Shown: one piece after another, positions 26,607 through 56,693 of the stretch | Position numbering within the stretch: position 1 is the first letter of the stretch | Layout of the letters: each line of letters opens with the position of its first letter | Source: an uncultured virus (IMG/VR IMGVR_UViG_3300028033_000029) | Lineage: Duplodnaviria > Heunggongvirae > Uroviricota > Caudoviricetes | Direction: 5' to 3' (one strand) | Virus record (IMG/VR): IMGVR_UViG_3300028033_000029 | DNA length: 64,000 nucleotides | Translations under genes and position numbers: made by a program | Notes under the pieces: generated by a model | Seen by the model: only the letters and a program-made list of their open reading frames with translations | The model's database searches: none | What the model was told of the DNA's origin: nothing

Positions 26607-26714
26607 TTCACCACCCTCTCACAGAATAAAAACAAGACGCTTGCATAATTAGGTTATATATAAATACTTGTTGTAAAAAAATATAGCTGTTAGCGCCTTT
26701 TATTCCTTTTATTA

Positions 26715-40490: not shown

Positions 40491-40504
40491 AAGGAGGGCT
40501 TTAT

Positions 40505-40681: not shown

Positions 40682-40735
40682 TCCACCTTGAATTAAAAAA
40701 AACAAAAAATAATAATTTTAAGGAGGAGAATAAAG

Positions 40736-40933
40736 ATGAATAAAGAAATTATTAATGCCTTTGAGGAATTTAAAAGTGCAAGTGTCAATTTTCTTGAAAT
40801 TATATCTAAATACAATTTAGATAGCAAAGAGGATTTTTGGGAAAACTATCCATTTGATAAAGATTTTATAGAAATTGTAGACAATATAATTGATTGGTAT
40901 AATGCAGTTTTTGACAGAAAGGAGGGGCAATAA
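40736..40933 (+). CDS. Small acidic early protein
   Basis: AGGAGG SD. Confidence 0.75.
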   Translation: MNKEIINAFEEFKSASVNFLEIISKYNLDSKEDFWENYPFDKDFIEIVDNIIDWYNAVFDRKEGQ

Positions 40934-40934
40934 A

Positions 40935-41033
40935 ATGAAAATTTTAAGTATGTTAGGTGAATTATTTACTTTGCTTTTAGGAATGTTTACAATTTATTTA
41001 TGGGCATGTATTTTAGCAGTTACATTAAAATAA
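40935..41033 (+). CDS. Small hydrophobic membrane peptide (32 aa)
   Basis: GGAGG SD; MKILSMLGELFTLLLGMFTIYLWACILAVTLK. Confidence 0.55.
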   Translation: MKILSMLGELFTLLLGMFTIYLWACILAVTLK

Positions 41034-41048
41034 TAAGGAGGTATTGGT

Positions 41049-41915
41049 ATGAAAATAACATTATATACTAATTATTTAGCCATTTCAGGAGTGGATATAA
41101 AATATACTTTTGATTTAGAAACATTACAAGGTACAAAAGAATTTGTAGATTATGAAGAAGGAGAAATGAAAACTGATATTATAACAGAGAAAGATAAAGA
41201 GATAATTCAAGCAGAATTAAACAATATAGAATTCCAACAAAAAATACAAGAGACACAAGCAAAAAACAAAAAGAGTATTAAACTATCAGCTTACAAATCT
41301 CCCGAAAAACAATTTAATGAGAAATTAGAAGGAGCTAAAGCAAAATTAGAAAAGGACTTCCTCAACATGCTTTCAAAAATTGAAAGGGAAGTCCAGTATC
41401 CATTTCAGTATGATAATTTATTAATCATTAAAGATAAAATTAATAATAATAAATTTTTTAAAGACCATATAACAGCTGAACAGTTGCAGTTATTAGAAAG
41501 CAAAATTGAGCAAGCTAAAAGAGTTAAAAAAGAGTATGAATATAAGCATGAGGTTATATTTAGTGTTAAACAAGATAATAATAACAGTATATTTTGTTAT
41601 ATGGATAGTAGCGGTTATTATTATCTTGTAACACAAAGACAGTATAAAACTAAAGCTATAACAGAATTATTTAGACAATTACTTACACAAGAAGGTTATA
41701 TAATAACAGACAATGAATTAACATTGCTTGATTATTATATATATAGAGAGACAAAGAAAAATATTGAAATAACAAGGATTGAATTAGAAAGAATGAGGCA
41801 AGAAAAGCAAATGCCATGTATTATATACCAAGAAACAGAGGACAGAATACTGAAAAAAATTTTTGACCCACTATTGATAAGCAAAAATTATAATGATATA
41901 ATAACAGCAAAATAA
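41049..41915 (+). CDS. Hypothetical protein
   Basis: 288 aa, SD. Confidence 0.8.
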   Translation: MKITLYTNYLAISGVDIKYTFDLETLQGTKEFVDYEEGEMKTDIITEKDKEIIQAELNNIEFQQKIQETQAKNKKSIKLSAYKSPEKQFNEKLEGAKAKLEKDFLNMLSKIEREVQYPFQYDNLLIIKDKINNNKFFKDHITAEQLQLLESKIEQAKRVKKEYEYKHEVIFSVKQDNNNSIFCYMDSSGYYYLVTQRQYKTKAITELFRQLLTQEGYIITDNELTLLDYYIYRETKKNIEITRIELERMRQEKQMPCIIYQETEDRILKKIFDPLLISKNYNDIITAK

Positions 41916-42071
41916 AAAAACAGAAGGAGGTCTTACCATGAAAATAAAAGCAATTTTATCAACCGAAGTCTTCCCAGTATTTGAAACCTGATGAGATAAG
42001 ATATAGTTACAATTTCATGCAATACAACAAAATAAAAGAAATGATACAAAAACTTAAAGGAGAGGAAAGCA

Positions 42072-42431
42072 ATGGAGCATAATAGTATAACAGCAAAAAT
42101 GGTAGAGACTTTCCTGAAAAAGACATATAACAGAATTAAAAAGGATGCTTTGTATGTTATGCAATATTATTCGCAATATCCAACACTTATAGATGATTAT
42201 TACAAGTTATTGGGTATGTATTCTGACAGATTGTGGAATTTACATAGTTGGGTGAAGAAGGTTGACAATATCGCAAAGTTACAAGAGCTTTTAAGGTCTT
42301 ACGATAGAGAATATAAAATATTTAAAAATATGGAAAAAGATGAGTTTTTATATAGTGATTTAGCTGACTGGTATGAAGATATTATTATTGGTTTAGAAAA
42401 AATTATGCAAAATTTTTCTAAAGAGTATTGA
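42072..42431 (+). CDS. Hypothetical protein
   Basis: 119 aa, SD. Confidence 0.75.
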   Translation: MEHNSITAKMVETFLKKTYNRIKKDALYVMQYYSQYPTLIDDYYKLLGMYSDRLWNLHSWVKKVDNIAKLQELLRSYDREYKIFKNMEKDEFLYSDLADWYEDIIIGLEKIMQNFSKEY

Positions 42432-42477
42432 CATTATAAGAATAACGATTTATAATAATGCAAAAGGAGGAGATATT

Positions 42478-42663
42478 ATGACTATAACAGCTTTTAATAA
42501 GTTTATTCAAGACTTAAAAAATTTTGTTGACAAAATGAATGAGAATAATATACCTAAGAATGAGCAGAAGATTCTATTAAAACATTATGTGACAATATAT
42601 AACATTCAACATAACAGCAGAATAAATTTAAATAAAAATAATATTGATTTGTTAGTTAGTTGA
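42478..42663 (+). CDS. Small hypothetical protein
   Basis: Promoter 42428, SD. Confidence 0.7.
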   Translation: MTITAFNKFIQDLKNFVDKMNENNIPKNEQKILLKHYVTIYNIQHNSRINLNKNNIDLLVS

Positions 42664-42740
42664 GGAGGGTTAAAATAAAAGAATATTTAAAAGATATTAT
42701 TAAAGAAATTCCGATATTTTAAAGATAAGGAGGAAGTAGT

Positions 42741-43856
42741 ATGAAGTTTAAAGTAAATAAAAAAGAATTAGAAAAAGCTTTAACTATTGTAAAAAAAGGG
42801 TTGGGTAAAAAAATTCCTATTTTAAAAAATGTACTTATAACAGTAGAAAATAGAAAAATAATACAATTTACTGCATCTGATTTAAAAATAATGGTGAGTT
42901 ATACTATTATTTCTAATGACTCAGAAGATGGAGCAGTTGTAGTTGATTTAAATGGATTGTTAAATATAGTAAAAACTTTACCTGATACAGATTTAGAGAT
43001 ATTTTTAGGGAATAACAGACTTATAATACAATATAACAATTCTCAAATAGAAATGGCTATTAATTTAAGTCCTGATGAGTATCCTCTGAGTATTCATGTT
43101 GTTGATATGGATAATGTATTTAGTATAACAGCGGAAAATTTACAGACTCTAATAGATAAAATAATATTTGCAGTGGATAAAAAAGGACACTATTCAGCAA
43201 GACCAGTATTGCAAGGAGTTTTGTTTGATATAACAGATGATACAATAAATGCAGTAGCGTCAGACGGGTATAGAATGGTGTTACATAAAACGAAGATAAA
43301 CAACGATATTGGTGTAGATACTCAATTAGTAATACCTGCTAAACTATTAGAAAAAGTTTATAAAGTTATAAAGTTAACAAAATACAAGGGAGATATAGAA
43401 GTTTACTATAACAGCAAAAACATATCATTCTACACAGAAGAATTTGAAGTAAGTGGATATTTGATAGATGGGAAATATTTTGATTATAAGTCAGTATTGC
43501 CAAAAGAATTTAATACTAAGGTAGTAGTTGATAAAAAAGATTTTGAAGATATACTCAAAAGAATGGAGGTTATTCCTTCATTAAAGGAAATGCCGATGGT
43601 GAAAATCATAACAGAAAATAGTAAAATTTACATACACTCTCATGAAGGAACTATAAGTTTAATTGAGAATATGTCAGCAAAAATAACAGGAGATAAAGTA
43701 GAAATAGGTTTTAGGGTGACTTATATTCTTGATTATTTAAAAAGGATTAAGGGTAATGAAGTGCTTATAAATATTATAAATTCAAATTCTCCTGCTATAT
43801 TTAAAGATAGTACCAATGAAGATTATCAATATTTAGTTATGCCAATAAGATTATAA
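42741..43856 (+). CDS. dnaN: DNA polymerase III beta sliding clamp
   Basis: 371 aa; PILKNVLI, RPVLQGV, ASDGYRM, C-terminal YLVMPIRL. Confidence 0.95.
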   Translation: MKFKVNKKELEKALTIVKKGLGKKIPILKNVLITVENRKIIQFTASDLKIMVSYTIISNDSEDGAVVVDLNGLLNIVKTLPDTDLEIFLGNNRLIIQYNNSQIEMAINLSPDEYPLSIHVVDMDNVFSITAENLQTLIDKIIFAVDKKGHYSARPVLQGVLFDITDDTINAVASDGYRMVLHKTKINNDIGVDTQLVIPAKLLEKVYKVIKLTKYKGDIEVYYNSKNISFYTEEFEVSGYLIDGKYFDYKSVLPKEFNTKVVVDKKDFEDILKRMEVIPSLKEMPMVKIITENSKIYIHSHEGTISLIENMSAKITGDKVEIGFRVTYILDYLKRIKGNEVLINIINSNSPAIFKDSTNEDYQYLVMPIRL

Positions 43857-43901
43857 TTTTTCATAACAGCGAAGGAGGTATAGTTATGAGTCCATGAATA
43901 A

Positions 43902-44648
43902 ATGCAAATAATAACAATAATAAACAATAAAATTGTGGAGGTAGATAGTTTAATGGATGAAATTAAATTAGAGTTAGTTAAAAGCGAAGAGTTTTTAGGT
44001 GTTAAGTGTGATTTTTATAGAGACCAAGATAATAATATATATATGACAAGGGAGCAAATTGGGCAAGCATTGCAATATAGTAATCCCCAGAAAGCTATAG
44101 ATAATATACATAGTAGAAATAAAGAAAGATTAGATAAATTTTCAGTTATGTACAAATTAAAAAGTAGTGATGGTAAATATTATAATACATTATTATATTC
44201 AAAAGAAGGTATTATGGAAATATGTAAATTATCATCGGCATTACCACAAAGACAAGAGTTATTATTACGTATTATAGGTTGTACACAACAAGAGATAAAT
44301 TTAATAATATATCAAAATAATCAATTATATAAGCAAAATGATTTTTATAATAAACTTTCTAATGTTTTACATAATATATGTAAAATAGAAAGAGAAGTAA
44401 AGGTTTTAAACTATAGAGTGGATTTCCTAATAAATAGACATATTATTATTGAATGTGATGAATTAGGACATAAAGATAGAAATAAAAAATATGAAATTAA
44501 AAGAGAACAAGATTTAATTAATGCAGGGTATAAAATTTTAAGATTTAATCCAGATGGTGATGATATATTTGAGTTTATAAATAAATTATTGATATTAATA
44601 AAAAATGATAATGACAAGCTCAAAGAATGGGGTTACATAACAGCTTAA
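43902..44648 (+). CDS. Bro-N/antirepressor domain fused to DUF559/Vsr-like nuclease
   Basis: MTREQIGQALQY.NP.KAI N-terminus; YRVDF...IECDELGH...ILRF C-terminus. Confidence 0.75.
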   Translation: MQIITIINNKIVEVDSLMDEIKLELVKSEEFLGVKCDFYRDQDNNIYMTREQIGQALQYSNPQKAIDNIHSRNKERLDKFSVMYKLKSSDGKYYNTLLYSKEGIMEICKLSSALPQRQELLLRIIGCTQQEINLIIYQNNQLYKQNDFYNKLSNVLHNICKIEREVKVLNYRVDFLINRHIIIECDELGHKDRNKKYEIKREQDLINAGYKILRFNPDGDDIFEFINKLLILIKNDNDKLKEWGYITA

Positions 44649-44779
44649 TTTTAAGGGTTTTGTGGTTCCCAAATAAAACCGTTATTTTACCTAACACATA
44701 ATTAATGATTGTACAGATGGTTATAAATTGTTATGAAGTTGGAATTATATAAATTTCAAAATAACAAGAAGGAGGTAAT

Positions 44780-45688
44780 TTGATGATAACATCAGAAGAA
44801 TTGTTAGAGAATAGAGATTTAAGAGAGCAGTTAATTAACAGACTTGAGGTATTAGATAAAGTTAAGCAAGTAGTAACAATGCCTAATACTGAATTATTAA
44901 CCATTGAACAGGTTGCAGATTATTATGAAGTTGATGCTAAAACAATTGATAAAATTGTGAATCGTCATTTAGACGAATTAACAGAAGATGGGTATAAAGT
45001 CTATTCGAGAGCAGAATTAATAAATCTTTTAAACCGACAAAATGTCGATTTAAAAAATTTAAAAGGAAAAACAATAATTACCATTGACAATCAAAGTGTT
45101 ATTATACCAAATAGAGGGTTAAGACTTTTTACAAGGCGGGCTTTGTTACGCGTAGGAATGTTATTAAGAGATTCAGAAATTGCCAAACGTGTAAGAACAT
45201 ATCTTTTAGATGTAGAAAATTTAGCAACAGAAGAACAAAAATTACGTGATATAACAGAAGAAGATAGATTGCTTTTGAGAGGCATTAAAGCAGAGAGTTT
45301 AGAAGAGCGCATTGAGGCTATTAATGAGATATACAAATATTATAACAGATTTAAAATACAAGCTGAAGAATCTCTCAAGGAAAACTTGTTATTAGCAAAG
45401 GGTATTTCTAGTTGGCATGAAAGAGAAGCTATAAACAAATTAATTAGAAAATTAGCAAACATAAAATATAATGGTAATTATGTTACAGCATGGAGTAAAT
45501 TGTATGATGAAATGTTATATAAACATCATATAAATGTACGAGCAAGGTTGGAGCATAATAAAGGGAAAACAATGTTTGATGTACTTAATTCTGAAGAAGT
45601 TATCAAAGCATTTCAATCAGCAGTAGCTCTGTGTAAAGAAGCGGATATTGATACAAATGAAATTTTGCAAAAAGTTAAAAATAAATAA
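44780..45688 (+). CDS. Antirepressor-like DNA-binding protein
   Basis: VADYYEV...LRVGMLLRDSEIAKRVRTYLL motif. Confidence 0.65.
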   Translation: MMITSEELLENRDLREQLINRLEVLDKVKQVVTMPNTELLTIEQVADYYEVDAKTIDKIVNRHLDELTEDGYKVYSRAELINLLNRQNVDLKNLKGKTIITIDNQSVIIPNRGLRLFTRRALLRVGMLLRDSEIAKRVRTYLLDVENLATEEQKLRDITEEDRLLLRGIKAESLEERIEAINEIYKYYNRFKIQAEESLKENLLLAKGISSWHEREAINKLIRKLANIKYNGNYVTAWSKLYDEMLYKHHINVRARLEHNKGKTMFDVLNSEEVIKAFQSAVALCKEADIDTNEILQKVKNK

Positions 45689-45786
45689 CTTCTAAGGGTT
45701 TTGCGGTTTTCCCATAAAAACCGCATTTTATAAAAAATATTGACAAATACAAATTATGATGATATAATATAACAGGAGGTGTTTAA

Positions 45787-45948
45787 ATGGGCGATATAAA
45801 GGAATTCAAAGGACGTATAGATATTAAATATATTGAAGAAATTATTAATAATTTATCAGAGGAAGAAATTCTAAAACTTTTAAGCTTGCCAGATGAAGAA
45901 ATTATGGAATTATTAGATGTTGATGATGAGGAGGGTGATGATAAATGA
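45787..45948 (+). CDS. Small highly acidic protein (53 aa)
   Basis: Promoter 45740, GGAGG SD; ~19 D/E; ATGA overlap with next gene. Confidence 0.7.
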   Translation: MGDIKEFKGRIDIKYIEEIINNLSEEEILKLLSLPDEEIMELLDVDDEEGDDK

Positions 45949-46472
45949 GAGAATATTATGTTAGCACTAAAGAAGTTGAAGGCAAAAAGTTTTATTATAT
46001 TGATTTTGGGTATGAAACTCACGGAAGAACAAGTTTTAGGTTGTGGGTTTCTTCAAAATTAATAAAAACAGATGATAATAATAGAGAATATATAGAATTC
46101 CCTATAACAGCAAAGATAGTAGAGACCGAAAAAAGAACTACAATTTTAAAACCACTACAAGAAGGTGAACAATATTATGTATTTGACTTATATCAACCAT
46201 GTGGTTATCGAGGTAGTGCTTATATAACAGTGTTAGAACCAGAGCCTTTAAATGTTAAAGTTTACAGGTACTACCATTCACCATTAGGAAATTTAGGAGA
46301 AGATTATGGCATGTTAATTATGGTAAATTCTGATAAGGTAAAAATTAAATGGGAAAGAACAGGACGTACTTACGGAGCACCCAAAGAAGGATACAGAGTG
46401 TATTATGCCGATGGAAAAACGGAAGAAATAGAACATATTGATTTAGAGGATTTGGAAGAGATAGAAAGTTAA
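45945..46472 (+). CDS. Hypothetical protein
   Basis: 175 aa, followed by hairpin terminator near 46474-46498. Confidence 0.8.
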   Translation: MREYYVSTKEVEGKKFYYIDFGYETHGRTSFRLWVSSKLIKTDDNNREYIEFPITAKIVETEKRTTILKPLQEGEQYYVFDLYQPCGYRGSAYITVLEPEPLNVKVYRYYHSPLGNLGEDYGMLIMVNSDKVKIKWERTGRTYGAPKEGYRVYYADGKTEEIEHIDLEDLEEIES

Positions 46473-46588
46473 AGTGAGAGGGTAAAATACCCTCTCACAA
46501 AATAATAATAAAAATATTCCCCCTCTGATGTATAGAATACATAAGAATTGAATATAATAATAACAGAAGATAAAAATATGAGGAGGAG

Positions 46589-46936
46589 GTGTGTGTTATG
46601 AAAAGGGGTGAGATATGGTTAGCTAATTTAGGGAAAAGAGAAGGGTCTATACAAAGTGGTATAAGACCCGTAATAATAGTGAGTAATGATAAAAATAATG
46701 AACATAGCCCTACTGTTAATGTGATACCAATCACAAGCAATATTAATAAAAACAATTTACCAGTGCATGTATATATTGGGATTGAATGTGGATTATTAAA
46801 ACCTTCTGTTGCGCTGGTAGAGCAAGACACCACAATAGATAAAACAATGTTGATTAAAAAGATAGGACAATGTACATATCAAACAATGGAAAAAATTAAT
46901 AAAGCCATTCTTATACAAAAAGGACTGATAGCGTAA
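46589..46936 (+). CDS. mazF: MazF/PemK-family protein (start probably ATG 46598)
   Basis: RGEIW..L...GS.Q.G.RP.IIVSND..N..SPTV..IPIT. Confidence 0.9.
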   Translation: MCVMKRGEIWLANLGKREGSIQSGIRPVIIVSNDKNNEHSPTVNVIPITSNINKNNLPVHVYIGIECGLLKPSVALVEQDTTIDKTMLIKKIGQCTYQTMEKINKAILIQKGLIA

Positions 46937-46961
46937 TAACAGGAAGGAGGTAAATAAAAAT

Positions 46962-47231
46962 ATGAATTTTGCTGTATCGATAGAACTTGAAAAAGAAGCA
47001 AAAATTAGGGATTTGGATAAAATTATTGATATTCTTAACAAAAAAAATAATATAAAAGGTGATATATATTGTCAAATAGACAACGAGCATACTATTAAAT
47101 GCTATATTTATTCGGAGCAGAAATACAAAATAAGTGATATTAAAAAAATGTTAAAAAATTATAATACTAAGGTTGAAGAAATAAAGCCAGCAAAAACAAA
47201 AAGAGGTGAAATAAATGATGATGATGAATAA
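46962..47231 (+). CDS. Hypothetical protein
   Basis: 89 aa, SD. Confidence 0.7.
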   Translation: MNFAVSIELEKEAKIRDLDKIIDILNKKNNIKGDIYCQIDNEHTIKCYIYSEQKYKISDIKKMLKNYNTKVEEIKPAKTKRGEINDDDE

Positions 47232-47559
47232 TATAGAGGAGGAAGTAATTAATCTTGTAGAACAATATGGGTATAAAGTGAGAGTTTTATATGACAATTC
47301 TTTATTAGTGACATCTAAATATTCTGAATGGTATGTTATCAATAAGGGGAATTATTATCTATTAAGGCATTATAGTAATAACAGTGAAAAAATAAGATTT
47401 CATATACAAAAAAATAGAGGTAACCAAAAATTAAAATTCGACAGTTTAGATAAAGTGTTTAAATATATATATAATCATGATAGGGCAGATATAGTAAAGA
47501 AAAATAGAGCACCTTATCATATCGAAAGACTTTTTCATTTAATAGAAAAAGCAAAATAA
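47215..47559 (+). CDS. Hypothetical protein
   Basis: 114 aa, SD. Confidence 0.7.
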   Translation: MMMMNNIEEEVINLVEQYGYKVRVLYDNSLLVTSKYSEWYVINKGNYYLLRHYSNNSEKIRFHIQKNRGNQKLKFDSLDKVFKYIYNHDRADIVKKNRAPYHIERLFHLIEKAK

Positions 47560-47617
47560 AAGTGTTGACAAATACATATATTATTAATATAATATAGTTA
47601 AAAAGGAGGAATCACAC

Positions 47618-48934
47618 ATGAAAGTTGAGCCACGAGAATTGTATAATAACCTTAATGTTATGATAAAAATATATGGGAAAAACAATAAAGTTTTGGAAGA
47701 GGTAACAAACTTATTAATGAAAAGAGGTATTCCGAGGGGATATACTAAGAAAATACTGATGGGTATTACACCCCTTGAGACATTAGATAGAGCAATATTG
47801 TATGTTGTTACTTCAGCATTTTATCAGGTTACAAATGAATCAATTGTAAATATTGAAAGATATTTTACTGATGAAGAAATTAAAGAAGGAGAAAAATTCC
47901 AATATATAACAGAGGAAAAAGAAAGTTTTCCAGTTATTTTTAAAGATGTAATTAAGGTAAATGATGATTATTATATAACAACATTAACAGCACAAAAAAT
48001 AAAAGAATTATATGATAGTTTTGTAGTGACGTATAATAAAGAGACACAACGTAATACAATAGCAAGAAGAATTCGCAATAGCGTAATAGAAATGATTAAT
48101 GTAAATTGGAAATCAGTCAAAGAAATAGAAGAAGAGATATTAAAAGGGTTATTCATAACAAATGCTATAACATTTAATATACTCAAGAATGGGGAGGAAG
48201 AATTTGAATATGATAAAAAAAATAGAACTTTAACAGTATATAGGGGTGAAATTGATATATTGGATGGTTTTCACAGAAGTTTAGGAATGATAAATGCAGT
48301 TATGATAAATCCAGAAGTACAATATATAACAGCAGTCAATATAACAAATTTTGATATTGAAAAAGCAAGAAGATTTATTGTGCAGGAAGACAAGAAAAAT
48401 AAAATTGCTAAAAAACATATTGAAGCCTATAAAGAAACGTTAGAAAATGCTATTGTGCGCAAGATTAATGAGAGCCCAAATTGTGATTTAAAGGGTAAAA
48501 TAACAACTAATGGAAGATTAATACAATTCAATCAAGCTCTTGTTGAATTTGAGGTATTAGCTCAAGCTATAAAATATCATTTTGTTGATATAAAAACACA
48601 AAGAGAAGCTAATCAAATAACTGATTATTTGATAGAAGGATTTAATGAGATAATTGGCTTATATCCAGATGAGTTTTTAGATAACTACATTAAGGTCAAA
48701 CAAAAAAGTGTAATAAATCACAACTATACTTTTATTGGCTATGTAGCATTATTAGCAAAATTAAGGGAAGATTCTCGATGGAAGGAAAAATTAAGAAAAA
48801 CTTTAGAAAAAATAGATTTTTCTATAAAAAACCCTGACTGGGAAATAATAGGATTATTTAACGATAGATTAACTATTAAAGTTATTGAAAATATTAGTAA
48901 ATATTTTATAGATAAAATAGTAAAGGAGGGATAA
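47618..48934 (+). CDS. DndB/ParB-like protein (SPbeta YopQ-like)
   Basis: ILDGFHR motif; 438 aa; precedes integrase-fold repressor. Confidence 0.7.
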   Translation: MKVEPRELYNNLNVMIKIYGKNNKVLEEVTNLLMKRGIPRGYTKKILMGITPLETLDRAILYVVTSAFYQVTNESIVNIERYFTDEEIKEGEKFQYITEEKESFPVIFKDVIKVNDDYYITTLTAQKIKELYDSFVVTYNKETQRNTIARRIRNSVIEMINVNWKSVKEIEEEILKGLFITNAITFNILKNGEEEFEYDKKNRTLTVYRGEIDILDGFHRSLGMINAVMINPEVQYITAVNITNFDIEKARRFIVQEDKKNKIAKKHIEAYKETLENAIVRKINESPNCDLKGKITTNGRLIQFNQALVEFEVLAQAIKYHFVDIKTQREANQITDYLIEGFNEIIGLYPDEFLDNYIKVKQKSVINHNYTFIGYVALLAKLREDSRWKEKLRKTLEKIDFSIKNPDWEIIGLFNDRLTIKVIENISKYFIDKIVKEG

Positions 48935-48935
48935 T

Positions 48936-49883
48936 ATGGAATTGTATAATCAAGAATTAAAAGAAAGATTTTTAGAACAATACCCTGAATCAACAAGATT
49001 AACATATAGAAATGTTTTTAAAAAGACAGCTCCGAAAGAAAAAGAATTACAAAAAGACTTATATCAGTTTAATTTGGAGGAATTAGATGATTTATTATAT
49101 TCATTTGGTAGCACTTCTGCACAATATATAGCAACTGCTTTGGTCGTATTGGCAAAATATGTTGATTTTTGCATACAAGAAGGATATATAGGAAATCCAG
49201 CAGGAATTAATTATGTGAGATTAATTAATCCCACATTAGAAAATTTAAAAAAGTACGAACATGGTATTGATAGAAAATATAGATATATCGATAGAGAAGA
49301 ATTACAACAAATAATTAATATGTGTGTGAATGCACAAGATGCGGTTATATTTGCGCTGTTGTTTGAGGGAGTAATGGGAGAAAATTTAGAAGAATTAATT
49401 AATCTAAGGGTAGATGATTGCAATTTTATGGATAATATCCTTACTTTAAGACGTAATGATGGAACAAAAAGAAGAATCATTGTGCATCCAGACACTATGA
49501 GACTTATTAACAAGGCGATAAATCAATTTGAGTATTACAGAGTTTCTGATATAACTAATGGTGTATTTTTATTACAAAATACTCCTTATGTGTTAAGACC
49601 TATAGTAAGTGAACGAGTTCCAACCGAAAAAGTAAGTCATCAAATAATTAGAAATAGGTTAAAAAAGATAGCGGAAATGTATGGGAATCCATACCTAAAT
49701 CCTAAAAATATTTTTAGGAGTGGTATGATAGATTATATAAGAAGATACATGAAGAAATATGATATAAAGTCTTTTAAAGATTTAAAGCATAAGGATATGG
49801 CGAACATTTTAAAAAGATTTGGAATAGAGGTTACAACACAAAGTGTTTACTTATATCGTACTAGATTGAGGGAATATGTTTAG
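48936..49883 (+). CDS. Integrase-fold lysogeny repressor (SPbeta YopR/MrpR-like)
   Basis: YN.ELKERFL, NAQDAVIFALLFEG, RSGMI; canonical recombinase catalytic set not evident. Confidence 0.7.
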   Translation: MELYNQELKERFLEQYPESTRLTYRNVFKKTAPKEKELQKDLYQFNLEELDDLLYSFGSTSAQYIATALVVLAKYVDFCIQEGYIGNPAGINYVRLINPTLENLKKYEHGIDRKYRYIDREELQQIINMCVNAQDAVIFALLFEGVMGENLEELINLRVDDCNFMDNILTLRRNDGTKRRIIVHPDTMRLINKAINQFEYYRVSDITNGVFLLQNTPYVLRPIVSERVPTEKVSHQIIRNRLKKIAEMYGNPYLNPKNIFRSGMIDYIRRYMKKYDIKSFKDLKHKDMANILKRFGIEVTTQSVYLYRTRLREYV

Positions 49884-49915
49884 AAGGCAGTTCCCTCAAA
49901 TACATAGTGCAAACG

Positions 49916-50542
49916 CTATTTTTTAGGTTTTTTGAATACACCCATATAAACACCATTAATGATTATATCGTTAGCAGGGTGTACGATGTCAGAATAAGCA
50001 GGGTTAGAAGAACGCAGAATAACCATATCAGAATTTTCAGGATGATATAGATGTTTTAAGCAAGTTTCATTCCCATCGATTATAACAGCAACTATTTGCC
50101 CATTATAATCTACATAATTTTGCACTCTTATGAGTACAATATCACCATCCTCTATGCCATCTCCTATCATACTATCGCCTTCTGCTTTTAAAAGGAAGTG
50201 TTCATATCCAACACTTAACATTTCTTTTGGAAATGGCATATACCCTTGTAAGTGTTCTTCGGCAAATAAGGGTTGTCCTGCACGAATATTGCCTAGAATA
50301 GGTAATATAACCATTTCTACTTCTTTAACATTTGAAAAGTTAGGTGTTTCATTTTCAAAAAAATATTGTATTGGTACTCCTAAAACAGTAGCAATTTTTT
50401 GCAATTTATCTATATCTAGTTTTATTGTGTTGCTTTCGTACTTATTAAGGGTAGAATGTGATATACCTAAAAGTTGTGCTAATTGTTTTTGATTTAAACC
50501 TTTATTCATACGTGCTTTTCTAATCTTTTCACCAAGAGTCAT
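49916..50542 (-). CDS. LexA/CI-like repressor (XRE HTH + S24 peptidase)
   Basis: HTH N-terminus, AG cleavage site, GDSM catalytic Ser, CLK catalytic Lys. Confidence 0.92.
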   Translation of the reverse strand: MTLGEKIRKARMNKGLNQKQLAQLLGISHSTLNKYESNTIKLDIDKLQKIATVLGVPIQYFFENETPNFSNVKEVEMVILPILGNIRAGQPLFAEEHLQGYMPFPKEMLSVGYEHFLLKAEGDSMIGDGIEDGDIVLIRVQNYVDYNGQIVAVIIDGNETCLKHLYHPENSDMVILRSSNPAYSDIVHPANDIIINGVYMGVFKKPKK

Positions 50543-50574
50543 TTTAAAAACTCCCTTCTGTTTTTGATAATATT

Positions 50575-50640
50575 ATTATAACTAATTTCAAAAAAATACG
50601 CAAATTTTTTATTGACATTTCATCACAAGAAATATATAAT
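50575..50640. promoter_or_regulatory. Divergent promoters at repressor
   Basis: Plus TTGACA-17-TATAAT 50612-50640; minus TTGCGT-17-TATAAT 50575-50603. Confidence 0.7.
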
Positions 50641-50691
50641 AAAATTAAATGACAATAATTTATTTTTAATCACAAAAAATAAAAAATATGA

Positions 50692-51108
50692 ATGGAGGTT
50701 ATAAATATGGAGGGAAAAATCTTTAAAAAACCACAATTAAGGAGTAAATATATGGAGAGGTGGTACGAGATTTTATGCAATACTTCCGAAAGAGAGGAAG
50801 AATTCATTGAAAGATTTTACGAAAATAACGGATGGATATTAAAAGCTTTGTACAACTATCGAATATACCAAATTCAACAAGGCAGAGGACAGAATATTAC
50901 ACCACAAGAATTGTCTCAAACAAGAGAAGAGGACGAGCTTATACACAAATTAGAAGAGATGTTTTTATATCCAATTTATAAATCAACTTTAAAGTTAATA
51001 AGAGAGACATTTATTAATTATGAGGAATTATTGGAATTACATAGCAAATATACAGAATATCCTTTAGAAAAAATAATTGTAGAATATAGAAATAATTTTA
51101 TTTATTAA
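50692..51108 (+). CDS. Hypothetical protein (start probably 50707)
   Basis: Divergent from repressor; GGAGG precedes second ATG. Confidence 0.7.
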   Translation: MEVINMEGKIFKKPQLRSKYMERWYEILCNTSEREEEFIERFYENNGWILKALYNYRIYQIQQGRGQNITPQELSQTREEDELIHKLEEMFLYPIYKSTLKLIRETFINYEELLELHSKYTEYPLEKIIVEYRNNFIY

Positions 51109-51160
51109 ATAGGGGAAACGAGGAAAGGGTAAAAAAATAAAAAACAAGGAGGATGGTATT

Positions 51161-51682
51161 ATGCATATAGCATTAACAGGCTGGGCAGGTGCAGGAAAAA
51201 CTACAGTTGCCCAGTATTTGGAACAAAAGTATAGGTATAAACGAATTAGTTTTGCTGATGGAATAAAAGATATTGCAAAAAAATATTTTTTTGTGCAAGA
51301 AAAAAATAGGAAATTGTTACAACAAATCGGTGAAAAAATGAGAGAAATAGATCAAGATGTATGGGTAAAATACACACTTCATAGGATAGAATACATAGAA
51401 TTAGATTCGCCAGTTGTAATTGATGATTTAAGACGTATGAATGAATTTGAGGCTTTACAAAGGAAAGGTTTTATAGTAATACGTATTGAAGCAAATGAAG
51501 ATATAAGGATTGATAGGCTAATTAAAAGAGATGGCTTTTGTGATAGAACTTTACTTTATAATGAAAGTGAAAATGGAGTTGCACATTTGGAATTCCCTAT
51601 AATATATAATAATGGTACCTTAGATGAATTATATAGAAATATTGATAAATTAATGACAAATTTACTGGTTTCCAATTATTAA
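51161..51682 (+). CDS. Nucleotide (dNMP-type) kinase
   Basis: GWAGAGKT P-loop; SFAD..K, LLQQIG..MR, VIDDLR..NE. Confidence 0.85.
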   Translation: MHIALTGWAGAGKTTVAQYLEQKYRYKRISFADGIKDIAKKYFFVQEKNRKLLQQIGEKMREIDQDVWVKYTLHRIEYIELDSPVVIDDLRRMNEFEALQRKGFIVIRIEANEDIRIDRLIKRDGFCDRTLLYNESENGVAHLEFPIIYNNGTLDELYRNIDKLMTNLLVSNY

Positions 51683-51759
51683 AATAACAGAAATTTGTAA
51701 TTGCGAGGTGTTATTATGTTATAAAAAAGGAACTAAAAAGATAAATGGAGGGGTAGTAT

Positions 51760-52305
51760 ATGAGTTTTTATCGATTAATTTTCTTTATTGTGTTACTCAT
51801 AATATTAATAATAACACCAATACATACTTCTAATAAAAGTACAATTTTATTGAAAAATAATGAAATTTACAAAGAAAAAATTGCAAAAATAAAAGATAAT
51901 AATAATAATAATACAGTTAAAACTCAAAAAAATGCAAGTTTAAATAATAATAACATCAAAAAAGAAGAAGAACAGCAATATAAAGTAGTTATTATGGAGG
52001 TTACCGCATATACCTTAAATGAATGTGGTAAATCTCCTGATGATAAATATTATGGTATAACAGCAAGCGGGACAAGAGCAAGAGAGTATCGAACTGTTGC
52101 AGCAAGTAGAAGCATACCATTTGGTACAAGAATTAAAATACCAGCTTTTGAAGAGTTTGTGGGTAGGAATAATATTGAGTTTGTTGTTGAAGATAGAGGG
52201 GGCGCTATAACAGAAGGAAAACTTGATGTGTATGTATCAGATGTTGATTTAGCTAAGCAGTGGGGCAGAAGAAAGGTTGAGGTAATAATTTATGGGAGGG
52301 ATTGA
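51760..52305 (+). CDS. 3D-domain cell-wall protein
   Basis: N-terminal TM; TAY, GITASG, EDRGGAI...LDVY. Confidence 0.88.
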   Translation: MSFYRLIFFIVLLIILIITPIHTSNKSTILLKNNEIYKEKIAKIKDNNNNNTVKTQKNASLNNNNIKKEEEQQYKVVIMEVTAYTLNECGKSPDDKYYGITASGTRAREYRTVAASRSIPFGTRIKIPAFEEFVGRNNIEFVVEDRGGAITEGKLDVYVSDVDLAKQWGRRKVEVIIYGRD

Positions 52306-52306
52306 T

Positions 52307-52571
52307 ATGTTATTTAAAATTGGCGTTTTCTTTGTAATAATTTTCTTTTTAGTGTGGGCATATGTGATTTTTTCTTCAGGAACAGGAAATCATCATAATA
52401 GAGATTGGAGATGATATTATGTGGTTAGTAATAGTAATAATATTGTATGGTACTATATCAGCTTTGATAGGATTTATGTTATGTGCCTCATTTACGGCGG
52501 GTAAGATAAGCGAGTTAGAAGCACAACTATATGAATTGCATCAAAATAACAGAGGGGATGTTAATGGATAG
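52307..52571 (+). CDS. Two small membrane ORFs (52307-52414, 52419-52571)
   Basis: SD-preceded hydrophobic 35 and 50 aa peptides by manual translation. Confidence 0.45.
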
Positions 52572-52827
52572 GTTTGAGCAATTTCTTTTAAAGGAGTTGC
52601 AAAAAGCAAGAGATGAGTTTGAGTACATTGAAAGCTGGTTAGAGCGTGCAGAAAGAGAATATAAAGAAAATATTGTAATTTTTGGTAAAAAATATACATC
52701 TGATGCTGAAGTTGTAGATGCTAGAAGGGCATATCGCACTGTAAAACGTGAGCTTGGATTGTTGGAATCTATTTATGAAACGTACAAATGTTTTAAAGAG
52801 GGAAAGGAAATGTACAAAAATGAGTAA
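52531..52827 (+). CDS. Hypothetical coiled-coil protein
   Basis: ORF track; start probably internal (MDRFEQ). Confidence 0.6.
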   Translation: MNCIKITEGMLMDRFEQFLLKELQKARDEFEYIESWLERAEREYKENIVIFGKKYTSDAEVVDARRAYRTVKRELGLLESIYETYKCFKEGKEMYKNE

Positions 52828-53062
52828 AGATAAAATAGTTTTTACCTTTTATGGAATTTTTACGGGTACAGAATATAAGATTTATCCGACAGAGGGTAGA
52901 TATGAGATTATTTACGAAGAATTACCTAAAGAAATGGTCGAGGCAATGGTAAGTGGGCATATCGAACGATTAGGTGTGGCTTTTAGAACTTTTTATTATA
53001 CTTTACTGTACAATTTAGGTATTTTTACAATGATAGACAAAATAATCAAAAAGAATTGTTAA
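52748..53062 (+). CDS. Hypothetical protein (start probably 52820)
   Basis: ORF track. Confidence 0.55.
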   Translation: MSLDCWNLFMKRTNVLKRERKCTKMSKDKIVFTFYGIFTGTEYKIYPTEGRYEIIYEELPKEMVEAMVSGHIERLGVAFRTFYYTLLYNLGIFTMIDKIIKKNC

Positions 53063-53277
53063 GTAAAAACTGTTATGGTAAATGTGGGGTGTTGATTGTG
53101 ATTATATGGAAGAAAAATAATTGTCTCATTAAACAAGATGAGATTGGGGAATATTTACAAAAAATTGCAAGTCAGATGTTTGAAGAAGGGGTAGAAGTAT
53201 TAAATGTAACAATAATTAAAAGCGGAAGAGTTGGGTATGTGAGTGTAGATATTTTTGGAAAAGCAAACGAAAATTAG
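53056..53277 (+). CDS. Hypothetical protein
   Basis: ORF track. Confidence 0.5.
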   Translation: MLSKNCYGKCGVLIVIIWKKNNCLIKQDEIGEYLQKIASQMFEEGVEVLNVTIIKSGRVGYVSVDIFGKANEN

Positions 53278-53337
53278 ATTTTTCTTTTTTGTTTTTGTGC
53301 TTTAATAATAGAAATAAATTTCAAAGGAGATGGTAAA

Positions 53338-54330
53338 GTGGTAATTACGGAAACGCAAACTGATAAAGAATTAGAAGGGAAAATGCCTACCAAAGTGAAA
53401 CTTTTTACCCACACTGATTTGGATGGCGTTGGTTGTGCAATATTGGGGAAAATAGTGAGTATGGTAAATAATATTGATGTGGAAATAGAATTTTGTGATT
53501 ATAATAATATAAATGACAAAGTTAATGATTTTTTGAAAGTAATTAATAATTATGATAAAGTATTCATAACGGACATATCAGTAAATGAGGAAATAGCAGA
53601 AAAGCTTGATAAATATAGTGATAAAGTGGTTTTGTTAGACCATCATAAAACGGTAAACTTTTTAAATAAATATAAATGGGCGCACGTATATGAGACTTTA
53701 GCGATCGATTTTGGGATTGATATACATATAAAAGTGTGTGGGGCATATTTATTTTTGGATTATTTAGTTAATTCAGGTTATTTTAAAAAATTTGAATTTT
53801 TACACATTCTAACTGATTTTATTGGAGTGATTCGAGAATATGATACTTGGGAATGGGTAGAAATTGATAATATTTTAGCAAAACAATTGAATGATTTATT
53901 GTATATTTTGGGTAGGGAAAGATTTATTGATGAGTTTGTAAGACAATTATTAAATGGTAAATTTGTAATAAATGATAAATTGAATTTTTTATTAGAATTA
54001 GAACAAGAGAAGATTGATGATTATATAGATAGTAAAAATAAAAATTTAGTTGTTAGAAATATAAGTGAATATAAAGTAGGAATTGTGTTTGCTGAAAGAT
54101 ACATATCGGAATTAGGAAACAAACTAATGGAGTTACATCCTGAATTAGATTTTGTTGCGATTGTGAATACGGATAAAGCAATTAGTTATAGAACAAATAA
54201 AGGCAATATTGATTTAAGTGAATTTGCAAAAATATATGGTGGTGGGGGACATCCACAGGCAGCAGGAAGTCTTATAAATGATGAAATGAAGAATAAAATC
54301 ATTGATGTATTATTCCAAAAAAAATTTTGA
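53338..54330 (+). CDS. DHH/DHHA1 phosphoesterase (nanoRNase NrnB-like)
   Basis: HTDLDG, ITD, LDHH, GGGGH..AAG. Confidence 0.9.
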   Translation: MVITETQTDKELEGKMPTKVKLFTHTDLDGVGCAILGKIVSMVNNIDVEIEFCDYNNINDKVNDFLKVINNYDKVFITDISVNEEIAEKLDKYSDKVVLLDHHKTVNFLNKYKWAHVYETLAIDFGIDIHIKVCGAYLFLDYLVNSGYFKKFEFLHILTDFIGVIREYDTWEWVEIDNILAKQLNDLLYILGRERFIDEFVRQLLNGKFVINDKLNFLLELEQEKIDDYIDSKNKNLVVRNISEYKVGIVFAERYISELGNKLMELHPELDFVAIVNTDKAISYRTNKGNIDLSEFAKIYGGGGHPQAAGSLINDEMKNKIIDVLFQKKF

Positions 54331-54337
54331 AGTGGTA

Positions 54338-54435
54338 TTGACAAAATAAAAATTTAGTGTTAATATAAAATTACAAATAAAAATAATAAAAATTTTTGAA
54401 AAAGGTATTGACAAAATAAAAATATATGGTATAAT
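54338..54435 (+). promoter_or_regulatory. Tandem duplicated sigma-A promoters
   Basis: GGTATTGACAAAATAAAAAT repeated 70 bp apart (-35 at 54338 and 54408). Confidence 0.8.
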
Positions 54436-54521
54436 AAAAATGTAAGAGAACACATTGCATACTACTTTTACTAATGATATAAATACAAAATAGAAATTGT
54501 AATTTGTATCTTGTTAAAAAT

Positions 54522-54786
54522 AAGATGCGTACAGCAATATTTTAAAATATTTTAATTAGAGCGGATAAGGCGCTAACAGCAAATATTCTTCAGAGGTAAG
54601 ATTGAGGATCTTGTACTTACAAGCGTCTTGTAATGAGAGACACTAACAGCAAATAACAAGGATAAGCTTGCTAAGCTTATATTCTGGTGTCTCGTTAAGT
54701 TATCTAACTTATGAGTTACTGACTTTGGAGTCAGTTTCGATACTTACAGCATAAACAGTATAATAATAATGATTAAAAGTATCGAG
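54522..54786 (+). ncRNA. Array of four ACAGCA-motif RNA units (first lacks its own 3' arm)
   Basis: Units at 54522, 54567-54629, 54637-54693, 54736-54786: 8-10 bp closing stems of different sequence, each followed by ACAGCA. Confidence 0.8.
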
Positions 54787-54796
54787 GAGGGATATT

Positions 54797-56269
54797 ATGA
54801 GTGAAAGATTTATTAATGCATTAAAGACGGAAAATAATTTTACCGCTACAGAAAATGAGGCAATAGCATTAAAAAGTACAAACAGTGCTTTATTAGATTT
54901 ATTTGGCGAAATAGGGGCTTTAAGAAATAGGGCAGAGAGTGAGATAGAGGCAAAATTTATAAAAGCATTTGCAGAAGATAAGTTGTTGGCAACTAAAATG
55001 GCATTTTACGCAAGAGATATTAGAGGTGGTCTTGGTGAAAGAAGAGTGTTTAGAGTAATTTTAAAATACTTAGCTAATGTTCGTCCAGAAATAGTGATAA
55101 AAAACCTGTATAATATACCTTTTTATGGCAGATGGGATGACTTATATACCCTAATAGGTACCCCAGTAGAAAAAAGCATGTGGGAATTCATAAAAAGACA
55201 GTTGCAAGAAGACTTAGAAAGCGTGGCTAATAATAAACCAGTAAGCTTGTTAGGGAAATGGTTAAAGTCAGTAAACACAAGCTCACAAGAATCAAGAGTA
55301 TTAGGTAAATTAACCGCCAAAAATTTAGGATTAAGTGAAAAACAATATAGAAAAATATTGTCAGAGCTTAGGAAATATATAGATGTAGTAGAAAGAAAGA
55401 TGACGGCTAACGAATGGGATAAAATAAATTACTCATCTGTTCCTTCAAGAGCTATGACGATATATAGAAATGCTTTCTATAGACATGACCCTAACAGATT
55501 TGATGAGTTTATTGAAAATGTTAAGCAGGGAAAAGAAAAAATAAATTCATCTACCTTATATCCTTACGATATATTAGAAAGAATGTGTGATGAAGGGTTT
55601 GATTTAGCATATATAAAGTATGACCCAGTATTAGAAGAACAATGGAAAGCACTACCGAACTATATAGATGGCGAACATAATGTATTGGTAATGGCAGACA
55701 CTTCAGGTAGTATGATAGGTAGACCAATGGCAACATCGGTAGGATTAGCGATATACTTTGCTGAAAGGAATAAAGGTATATGGCGCAACAAATTTATGAC
55801 GTTCTCTTCTGAACCTTCATTTGTAGAAATAAAAGGTGATACATTATATGAAAAATTGAAGTGTGTGCCAGAAATTGTAGGAAATACAAATTTAGAAGCT
55901 GCATTAAAATTAATTTTAGGTACTGCTATTAAGCATAAATTAACACAAGAAGATATACCAAAATCATTAATCATTATATCAGATATGCAATTTGATGATG
56001 CTACTGAGGATTATGGTAAAATGACATTTTACGATACAATGAAAGAAATATATAACAGAGCAGGATATGAAATACCAAATATAGTATTTTGGCAAGTAGA
56101 TAGTAGAAGAGATTCATTCCAAGTCACATCAGAATATAAAGGAGTACAATTAGCAAGTGGACAATCGCCAAGCGTATTTAAATCGATACTTAATACAATA
56201 GGGAAAACCCCATATGAAGCAATGTTAGAAATATTGAATAATCCAAGATATGATTATGTGGTAGTCTAA
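54797..56269 (+). CDS. DUF2828-family protein (TROVE/Ro60-like helical domain + vWA)
   Basis: TEN.A...ST...LDLF, RDIRGGLGER, YGRWDD; MIDAS DTSGS, ISDMQFD, VFW. Confidence 0.85.
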   Translation: MSERFINALKTENNFTATENEAIALKSTNSALLDLFGEIGALRNRAESEIEAKFIKAFAEDKLLATKMAFYARDIRGGLGERRVFRVILKYLANVRPEIVIKNLYNIPFYGRWDDLYTLIGTPVEKSMWEFIKRQLQEDLESVANNKPVSLLGKWLKSVNTSSQESRVLGKLTAKNLGLSEKQYRKILSELRKYIDVVERKMTANEWDKINYSSVPSRAMTIYRNAFYRHDPNRFDEFIENVKQGKEKINSSTLYPYDILERMCDEGFDLAYIKYDPVLEEQWKALPNYIDGEHNVLVMADTSGSMIGRPMATSVGLAIYFAERNKGIWRNKFMTFSSEPSFVEIKGDTLYEKLKCVPEIVGNTNLEAALKLILGTAIKHKLTQEDIPKSLIIISDMQFDDATEDYGKMTFYDTMKEIYNRAGYEIPNIVFWQVDSRRDSFQVTSEYKGVQLASGQSPSVFKSILNTIGKTPYEAMLEILNNPRYDYVVV

Positions 56270-56276
56270 GTTGTAA

Positions 56277-56330
56277 AAGGCGCTCACAGCAACTACTCAG
56301 GGGTTCTTGAAAAACCTTGTTGAGCGCCTT
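56277..56330 (+). ncRNA. Fifth ACAGCAA stem-loop unit after DUF2828 gene
   Basis: AAGGCGCTC-ACAGCAA...GAGCGCCTT followed by T-tract. Confidence 0.8.
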
Positions 56331-56693
56331 GTTTTTATAATATTTTTCAAAGGTAATGTATTATATAAGAAAAGAACACAATTGGAGGTATGTGTTATGG
56401 ATTATATTATAGAAATCCATATAAATAATCACAACAAGACAGATTATCAGGTTAGAGTATTTAAAACAGAGAGTTTTAATAGATATGTTGAAAGGATAAA
56501 AAATGGCGAAAGTTTTATTGTGTACGATATTTTTGGTAATCGTGGAGGAGTTACATTACCAAAATTGTATAGTAATTTTAAAATTTTAAGAGAAGATGAA
56601 GATAATTTTGTATTTACAATGACAATATTCACAACGCGTGGTAATTTTGAAAGAACAGTTTATTTAAGCAAAGTATATAGTGAAAAAGATTAA
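56307..56693 (+). CDS. Hypothetical protein (true start probably ATG ~56397)
   Basis: GGAGG SD before MDYIIEI. Confidence 0.65.
   Translation: MKNLVERLVFIIFFKGNVLYKKRTQLEVCVMDYIIEIHINNHNKTDYQVRVFKTESFNRYVERIKNGESFIVYDIFGNRGGVTLPKLYSNFKILREDEDNFVFTMTIFTTRGNFERTVYLSKVYSEKD

Follow-up and report, generated by a model that had tools for sequence, protein, structure and literature searches.

CAGCAA-box RNA units beside phage genes for a predicted Ro-fold protein, with anticodon-arm-like loops in a subset of the family

Genes for Ro60 are adjoined by tRNA-like Y RNAs (Chen et al. 2014, PMC4201824). Among phages, the Ro60 of Thermus phage phiLo binds two Y-like RNAs, Yrl1 and Yrl2, encoded upstream of its own gene (PMC12135203), and gp130 of phage Bas63 is a Ro60-like counter-defence protein encoded directly upstream of Felixounavirus tRNA genes (PhageMaP preprint, PMC11482910). 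The authors of the preprint guess that some of the annotated Bas63 tRNAs are Y RNAs; the sections of it cited here define no RNA motif. We analyzed a stretch of 64,000 nucleotides (nt) from a large uncultured tailed phage (IMG/VR record IMGVR_UViG_3300028033_000029; this whole stretch is called the window below), in which short RNA units built around the box CAGCAA lie before and behind the gene of a 490-residue protein with the domain DUF2828.

The units belong to a family with a covarying stem, they go with the DUF2828 gene, whose product is predicted to have the Ro60 fold, and their interiors are enriched in loops of the anticodon type. The reading we favor, with a probability of about 0.65, is that the units are Y-RNA-like, tRNA-mimicking RNA partners of the DUF2828 protein, i.e. 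functional analogues of the Y RNAs. From these observations we infer that the units would be processed, bound by the protein and put to use together with it.

Units flanking a DUF2828 gene

Each unit opens with one half of a 7-bp stem, runs through a 3-nt linker usually ending in A, the box CAGCAA and an interior of 25-45 nt, and closes with the 3' stem half and an unpaired G. The box is near-invariant and lies at the 5' side of the large loop, while the interior is variable. The copies found in the window are given here with the scores of two covariance models, R1 and R2, described below.

54522..54562, plus strand: unit 1, a remnant (GTA-CAGCAA) without a 3' stem half of its own; local match of R2 only (54527-54562, 14.8 bits)
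54567..54630, plus strand: unit 2, AAGGCGC-TAA-CAGCAA ... GCGTCTT-G; R1 42.0 bits, R2 36.3 bits
54596-54614, plus strand: interior hairpin of unit 2, GTAAGA-TTGAGGA-TCTTGT; from the structure-free hairpin count
54637..54694, plus strand: unit 3, GAGACAC-TAA-CAGCAA ... GTGTCTC-G; best R1 match, 52.6 bits, E 2.6e-11
54662..54680, plus strand: anticodon-arm-like hairpin of unit 3, 6-bp stem and loop UUGCUAA (ATAAGC-TTGCTAA-GCTTAT); from the sequence and the hairpin count
54737..54786, plus strand: unit 4, divergent and short, TCGATAC-TTA-CAGCAT ... GTATCGA-G; stem rule, and R2 with filters off, 28.5 bits
54797..56269, plus strand: DUF2828 and DUF7788/vWA gene, 490 amino acids; Pfam, PHROGs, AlphaFold2/Foldseek
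56277..56331, plus strand: unit 5, in the 3' untranslated region, AAGGCGC-TCA-CAGCAA ... GCGCCTT-G, then a T-rich tract; R1 47.3 bits
56300..56318, plus strand: anticodon-arm-like hairpin of unit 5, GGGGUU-CUUGAAA-AACCUU; from the sequence and the hairpin count
26634..26699, minus strand: sixth copy, AAGGCGC-TAA-CAGCTA ... GCGTCTT-G, then TTTTTATT; R1 25.9 bits, E 3.6e-4

The units are kept in two viral contigs, loci L001 and L002, whose DUF2828 protein is 97% identical to that of the window. Both have an intact unit with the core CAGCGA at the position of the remnant unit 1, and in the window the 5' half of unit 1 is able to pair with the 3' half of unit 2. The stem of unit 3 carries a compensatory change, from GAGACAC/GTGTCTC in the window to AAGGCAC/GTGCCTT in the relatives, and in unit 5 of L002 inner stem pairs become wobble pairs. 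Unit 4 was not picked up by R1; the ribosome-binding site GAGGAGG, 12 nt upstream of the start codon, begins with the 3' G of this unit. The sixth copy lies 28 kb from the array on the opposite strand, in the intergenic DNA between two late-region genes, and the nearest record compared (G001) holds its equivalent. ARAGORN found no tRNA gene in the 64 kb of the window, and Rfam gave nothing there at the gathering score and nothing at E <= 10 in 54300-56420. An earlier note, made from the sequence of this DNA, had held that the units are not tRNAs, and so it appears, as they lack a clear D-arm and an encoded CCA and those of the window lack a T-arm.

The protein is predicted to be an RNA-binding protein of the Ro60 fold, a phage paralog of Ro. 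Pfam reports DUF2828 (E 1e-41), DUF7788 (E 4e-38) and a sub-threshold VWA_2, and PHROGs assigns phrog_850, "RNA-binding protein" (E 6e-136). An AlphaFold2 model built from 43 sequences (predicted local distance difference test 93.1, predicted template-modeling score 0.91) contains a ring of helical repeats and a vWA domain, and in a Foldseek search of the PDB the top 12 rows, of which 11 are listed, are all Ro60 (E 8e-9 to 1e-5, template-modeling score 0.47-0.58). These matches are full-length, with 515-569 columns (9KOP, 1YVR, 2I91, 9NEP, 2NVO), and among them are the protein of Thermus phage phiLo, Xenopus Ro both alone and with RNA, and Rsr of Deinococcus; the best is the phiLo protein (9KOP), with 16% identity in the structural alignment. 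The relation is visible by fold comparison only, as the Pfam TROVE model does not match the 490-residue protein and a phmmer search of the PDB sequences returned no Ro60. The metal site of vWA domains has the motif D-x-S-x-S ... T ... D, and the corresponding residues D301, S303, S305, T364 and D396 are invariant in the 43 sequences.

The unit family and its link to the gene

Stem and box were recognized by eye beside DUF2828 genes whose products are only 35-45% identical, in metagenomic phages, Bacillus phages Skywalker and FADO, Enterococcus phage EF1, a Staphylococcus phage, Listeria phage P100, Salmonella phage FelixO1 and a mycobacteriophage. An alignment of 30 whole units with MAFFT misaligned the 3' stems (alignment A3), and a subset of 15 units aligned (A4); R1 was built from 15 units with only the 7-bp stem given as structure. 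Applied to 75 further loci, it returned 136 matches at E <= 0.1, 135 of them on the strand of the gene, the single off-strand match being the reverse complement of another match. Over 91 sources (608 kb) there were 141 matches at E <= 0.01, a rough E-value as all of this model's are, with 140 on the strand of the DUF2828 gene; 115 are upstream of it, at a median distance of 161 nt and never closer than 14, another 25 follow it and none falls within it. R2 with default filters drops even the units of the window and thus undercounts, and with the filters off it recovers them; run in this way, the second model gave a unit to 12 more loci, which brings the sources with at least one to 74 of 91. 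Units were merged only when identical, and the sources include near-duplicate loci.

In 99.4% of cells the 7-bp stem is paired, a share that drops to 29-59% if the partner columns are slid, and 202 stem cells are changed on both sides, against 41 in shuffles, with such changes at all 7 pairs; the alignment behind these counts (A6) was fitted to the model, so that they lean towards structure. The consensus reads AAGACRC-UWA-CAGCAA ... GYGUCUU, with ACAGCAA as the conserved box. The base after the stem, a position outside the model, is G in 127 of 130 distinct units, and positions +2 to +4 are mostly T or A, with no CCA encoded after the discriminator position. The phages that carry units infect Firmicutes, Proteobacteria and Actinobacteria, and the units are often interleaved with tRNA genes, as in Skywalker, FADO and FelixO1, the last of which has four. 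Four whole phage genomes of 86-165 kb gave 15 matches at E <= 0.1, and 14 of them fall in the DUF2828/tRNA region, the exception being one weak match on the opposite strand in FADO (E 0.076).

The association was also approached from the RNA. Viral contigs were scanned for AAGACACNNACAGCAA, and 80 loci with flanking DNA were examined. The closing stem that completes a unit is present in 31 of them, with G after the stem in 31 of their 33 units, and 14 of these 31 loci have a DUF2828 homolog within 4 kb, always on the same strand. Another 14 full-unit records were searched for PF11443, two full-unit loci with C after the stem being left out; 11 have it elsewhere on the contig, including all 8 records that are at least 90% complete, and the 3 that lack it are 24-80% complete. 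Where the closing stem is missing, the gene was present in 3 of 49 loci. For comparison, 701 of 50,697 phage records contain DUF2828, among them those of FelixO1-like, Listeria P100/A511-like, staphylococcal, enterococcal, Bacillus and mycobacterial phages, and at least 7,938 clusters match DUF2828 proteins at E <= 1e-20. The units therefore go with the gene, and adjacency is not required.

The positions in the window invite a different explanation, namely that the units act in cis on the DUF2828 operon, as leader or terminator elements for attenuation, mRNA stability or processing, with incidental loops and no part for the protein as a ligand. The window units do stand in the 5' leader and the 3' untranslated region, unit 4 touches the ribosome-binding site, T-runs follow both unit 5 and the unit at 26.6 kb, and a unit ends at most 100 nt from the start codon in 41 loci. 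We nevertheless regard this explanation as very unlikely: a simple terminator scan found none here, many units stand among tRNA genes or far from the gene, and DUF2828 is the sole constant neighbor of the units in annotated records. The invariance of CAGCAA and of the 3' G in phages from three bacterial phyla argues for a specific trans-acting reader.

Other searches returned little beyond these models. Among eight related loci Rfam matched only tRNAs, and its tRNA model does not match the units. A distant-mode blastn search of the leader against the 50,697 phage records gave no match; the units are too short and variable for a DNA search. A loose rule of stem plus CAGCA, applied to all loci, gave 64 matches on the plus and 56 on the minus strand, and a unit signal in the giant-virus-like loci L007-L077 (26-31% protein identity) was rejected as noise outside L001-L006. 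A literature search with most subscription journals outside its reach found no description of this RNA motif, and the CAGCAA units are apparently a widespread family of small-RNA modules beside a Ro60-like gene that has gone undescribed so far.

Some loci deserve separate mention. L170, a metagenomic contig labeled as a giant virus, carries on its minus strand three full units of 50-51 nt in tandem, about 250-290 nt apart and each followed by G. The Rfam tRNA model has a match of 140 nt at L003:1316-1455 and one of 127 nt at L078:1234-1360, neither of which ARAGORN calls; they would be tRNA genes with inserts of about 55-65 nt holding CAGCA words, and could be intron-bearing tRNAs or hybrids of tRNA and unit. 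Short annotated open reading frames, named "hypothetical protein" or "unknown", overlap units or gaps between tRNA genes in Staphylococcus phage S-CoN_Ph1 (L083, 4010-4357) and in FelixO1 (L085, 4119-4370 and 4914-5144), and are probably mis-calls over noncoding RNA.

Anticodon-arm-like loops

In units 3 and 5 the earlier note had seen hairpins with 7-nt loops of the form YU-NNN-RA, and had read them as mimics of serine anticodon arms. The loops stand where it placed them, at 54662-54680, at 56300-56318 and, in unit 2, at 54588-54594 (CTTCAGA). The pattern was fixed in this way ahead of any comparative data, and the tabulation over homologous arrays that the note had proposed reveals a marked enrichment. 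A structure-free count over the 130 distinct units found 84 hairpins with a 7-nt loop on a stem of 5 bp or more, compared with 35-58 for loops of other sizes; of the 84, 26 (31%) fit YT-NNN-RA and 8 more are T-loops; the window and its close relative L089 supply homologous pairs to the 26. Only 2 of 87 fit in the reverse-complement control (Fisher 1.5e-7), and 3.3% of such hairpins do so in a background of 585 kb of flanks with units and tRNAs masked (binomial P 1.6e-18). In minimum-energy folds, 28 of 117 hairpins have 7-nt loops against 7.9 +/- 3.0 in shuffles, and 8 loops fit YU-NNN-RA against 0.15 +/- 0.36 in 40 shuffles.

The 26 hairpins are spread over 25 units of 20 loci, have stems mostly of 5 bp (15) or 6 bp (9), and are placed about 10 nt past CAGCAA and about 10 nt ahead of the 3' stem. 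Their triplets are UUU (four times), GCU and GUU (three each), UGA, GUA, GCA and AGG (two each) and eight others seen once, and position 34 is mostly G (12) or U (9), is A in five cases and is never C. Among 182 real tRNAs from the same loci, C32 is present in 119, U33 in 173, A37 in 164 and A38 in 130 cases, and 124 of them fit YU-NNN-RA, a consensus that the unit loops share. A canonical T-arm, GGTTCRAWTCC, is found in 10 of 130 units, none of them in the window, and in the unit at L100:2305-2393 the stem and CAGCAA are joined, in tRNA order, by an arm of the anticodon type (CUGUAAA) and a T-arm. The comparative enrichment thus leads us to take the anticodon-arm mimicry as real at the level of sequence, and the units are best described as tRNA-like RNAs of graded completeness that are not tRNAs, those of the window being a reduced form with stem, box and anticodon-like arm.

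The idea of mimicry is thus upheld by the enrichment, by loops that follow the tRNA consensus and by the T-arms, but two parts of the original observation did not hold. That both window triplets are serine anticodons carries no weight, as the triplets are diverse across loci and GCU in unit 3 is replaced by GUU in the 97% relatives, where the stem and the 7-nt Y-U...A-A loop are kept with the loop reading CUGUUAA. The loop proposed in unit 2 has a weak stem only, and the better hairpin of that unit, at 54596-54614, is itself not conserved. The hairpin of unit 5 is identical in L001 and L002, and its loop CUUGAAA recurs in units of L110 and L112.

Three other readings of the interior were not adopted. 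A D-loop-like motif, A-W-TGG-W, is only weakly enriched (11 units against 4.0 +/- 2.0 in shuffles). Kissing loops of the general YUNR U-turn type do not suit CU...AA loops in which position 35 is mostly a pyrimidine. Pairing of the unit 3 loop (UUGCU) with the core AGCAA is possible there, but most other loops are unable to form it, and it is not general.

Taken by themselves, the window loops are weak evidence because minimum-energy folding prefers the 7-nt loop in neither unit. Folded alone, the hairpin of unit 3 forms 8 bp with a 3-nt loop, U32/U33 being able to pair with A37/A38; that of unit 5 is no more stable than shuffles (z -0.08), and the minimum-energy fold of the whole unit chooses another hairpin. 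Within the window alone, two or three cases in AT-rich sequence, with thermodynamically weak hairpins, could be a chance resemblance. This is contradicted by the enrichment in homologous units of a pattern that was set beforehand, and we consider chance extremely improbable.

What the arms are for is a separate matter. The note had suggested decoys or sensors, and in this special case of the reading we favor the arms would engage anticodon nucleases of the host's defence, or enzymes that modify tRNA, as decoys, sponges or sensors, the triplet selecting the enzyme. The loops copy the tRNA consensus, the triplets differ between units and between close relatives, as an arms race predicts, and they include UUU (x4), GUU (x3) and GUA (x2), the anticodons of tRNA classes that are known targets of anticodon nucleases. 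On the other side, 105 of 130 units have no such arm, and 5 of the 26 triplets, with A at position 34, are not ordinary anticodons. Phage tRNAs have been argued to counter tRNA-targeting defences (PMC10264068, PMC11555353), and the Ro60-like protein of Bas63 is reported to counter the ppl defence, but the preprint describes ppl as a DNA-directed system and not a tRNase (PMC11482910). From its position and the genus of the phage we would identify Bas63 gp130 as an ortholog of the FelixO1-type DUF2828 protein. The FelixO1 units that stand between tRNA genes, taken with the Bas63 report, fit a counter-defence role. Overall, the decoy explanation seems to us possible but rather unlikely. A broader form of it, in which thousands of phages would pair a Ro60-like ring protein with arrays of small tRNA mimics, every mimic showing an anticodon arm with a triplet of its own, and in which these arrays would be exchangeable panels of decoys or baits for host tRNA-cutting or tRNA-modifying enzymes, the set of triplets recording the tRNA-directed defences met, is offered with equal reserve.

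Alternatively, the units might descend from tRNA genes, with the anticodon-like and T-arm-like parts as decaying relics and only the stem, CAGCAA and G of importance, for protein binding or in cis. The presence of units inside tRNA arrays, the likeness of the 7-bp stem to an acceptor stem, the occurrence of arms in a minority of units and the wide variation of the interior in length and sequence would all agree with such a descent. Decay does not readily explain why the loop pattern is kept in arms whose stems share no sequence, or between the window and L001/L002 despite the change of triplet, nor why the enrichment over background is ten-fold at a fixed distance from the core and the 3' stem. 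The window phage, moreover, has no tRNA gene in 64 kb and still keeps two such arms. We judge this descent into relics to be doubtful.

Several observations weigh against a protein-bound, tRNA-mimicking RNA as we propose it, in addition to the lean of the paired alignment and the homologous pairs already mentioned. At E <= 0.01, 17 of 91 sources have no unit; some units are found tens of kb away from the gene, a distance that agrees with a role in trans and takes force from the case built on adjacency. The anticodon-like arm is present in only 25 of 130 units and is hence not needed for the role of the core, triplets that begin with A account for 5 of the 26 but are rare among the true tRNAs there (7 of 182), and the 7-nt loop of units 3 and 5 is not preferred in folding. 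The 97% relatives do not keep the hairpin of unit 2 and have a tetraloop hairpin in its place.

Setting of the array and comparison with known systems

Around the array, the window holds the following further features.

53338..54330, plus strand: DHH/DHHA1 phosphoesterase gene, the upstream neighbor (Pfam, PHROGs); context only
54338-54366, plus strand: weaker duplicate of the promoter, 10/12 hexamer matches
54408..54435, plus strand: sigma-70 promoter, TTGACA, 16 nt, TG-TATAAT; 12/12 hexamer matches and the TG extension
54696-54711 and 54718-54735, plus strand: two small hairpins separating units 3 and 4, from RNA folding

Both promoters are kept in L001 and L002, and the sequence of the two small hairpins is not the same there. 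The promoters lie in a segment repeated in tandem upstream of the array (GGTATTGACAAAATAAAAAT..., 54338-54366 and 54408-54435, plus strand), which is likewise present in both relatives. Genes of the RNA-repair type follow DUF2828 at a distance of a few genes in Listeria phage P100 (L084, 4620-6506; an HD phosphohydrolase and an RtcB-like "tRNA splicing ligase") and in Skywalker (L079, 4041-5282; a metallophosphatase). Together with the DHH phosphoesterase of the window they echo the Salmonella operon rsr-yrlBA-rtcBA.

In the rest of the window, the minus strand carries structural and packaging genes (about 1.8-33 kb) and the plus strand early and replication genes. The 8-mer TATAACAG occurs 33 times against 4.3 expected, 32 of these on the plus strand of the early region (38572-56058), in coding and intergenic DNA alike and five times within 38572-38681 alone; it may serve as a promoter element or a regulator site, or mark replication or RNA cleavage as a polar signal. 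The TATAACAG(CA) words were rejected as units, as they have neither the closing stem nor the extended consensus, and are a separate feature. On the minus strand, open reading frames at 22877-24385 and 25503-25847 match phrog_15503 or the terminase family, with an HNH/endonuclease frame (24641-25513) between them, which suggests an intron, intein or homing-endonuclease insertion in the large terminase gene. The window also contains three separate tyrosine-integrase-like genes (12024-12977, minus; 33364-34449 and 48936-49883, plus) and a MazF-like endoribonuclease gene in the early region (46589-46936, plus).

In the arrangement we propose, the consensus promoter at 54408-54435 would give one transcript with a leader of about 350 nt, the DUF2828 gene and unit 5, so that the four units of the leader and the one in the 3' untranslated region would be co-transcribed with the gene. 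Stem, CAGCAA and 3' G would form the protein-binding part, comparable to the conserved stem and GNCGAA motif of Y RNAs, and the variable interior would be a tRNA-like display part. In about a fifth of units this interior is an anticodon-arm mimic (5-6 bp stem, CU-NNN-AA loop), a class to which the loops of units 3 and 5 belong, and in some units it contains a full T-arm. The complex may then present tRNA-like elements to proteins that recognize tRNAs. Unit 4, at the ribosome-binding site, may allow the protein to control its own translation.

DUF2828 proteins are common and are annotated as RNA-binding proteins without a known RNA, and a defined, searchable partner would turn this label into a testable complex. 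The units would also be candidates for the missing RNA component of the Ro60-like counter-defence activity described in the preprint (PMC11482910). In practice, the motif points to mis-annotation in deposited phage genomes, in which several units are hidden beneath short "hypothetical protein" calls or fall between tRNA genes.

Like tRNA genes, the units have a terminal stem of 7 bp and a C/U-U-NNN-A-A loop of 7 nt on a stem of 5 bp; some have a T-arm, and they are located inside tRNA arrays. They differ in having no clear D-arm, about 9 nt (NNA-CAGCAA) in place of the 2 nt of a tRNA, and no encoded CCA, and neither ARAGORN nor the tRNA model of Rfam calls them.

The likeness to the YrlA-type Y RNAs of Ro60 (Rsr) is closer. 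Both are noncoding RNAs, frequently in multiple copies, that are encoded next to a Ro60-fold gene and on its strand, with a terminal stem around a large loop, a short conserved motif near the 5' end and partial tRNA mimicry (PMC4201824). With 7 bp, the stem of the units falls short of the "long stem" that Y RNAs are described as having, and their box is ACAGCAA, not GNCGAA(N0-1)G or GGUCCGA; G-N-CGAA is found in the first 25 nt of none of the 130 units, whereas Yrl1 and Yrl2 of phiLo were chosen by their CGAA motif (PMC12135203). Unlike the YrlA system, the units match no Rfam model and their protein belongs to DUF2828, not to Pfam TROVE. In YrlA the mimicry covers the T, D and acceptor portions of a tRNA. 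The units have their putative protein-binding stem where an acceptor stem would be, and what they imitate is an anticodon arm, either alone or together with a T-arm. Yrn1 of Deinococcus radiodurans resembles the units in its potential "anticodon arm" with a 5-bp stem, but has a 6-nt loop, is a single RNA without a variety of triplets and carries a binding site of the GNCGAA type (PMC4201824). The 22 phages in Table S2 of that paper are cluster C mycobacteriophages, Bacillus phage G and CcrColossus, and none of them belongs to the phage groups that bear units.

We would therefore set the units apart from the known Y RNAs, as a CAGCAA-box class of tRNA-mimicking RNAs paired with a DUF2828 clade of Ro-fold proteins, because they have no GNCGAA motif and no Rfam match, go with another protein family and occur in other phages than those of the published list. 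If this is correct, Ro60/Y-RNA biology extends to a second protein clade with a different recognition box, and anticodon-arm mimicry is added to the known T- and D-arm mimicry of YrlA.

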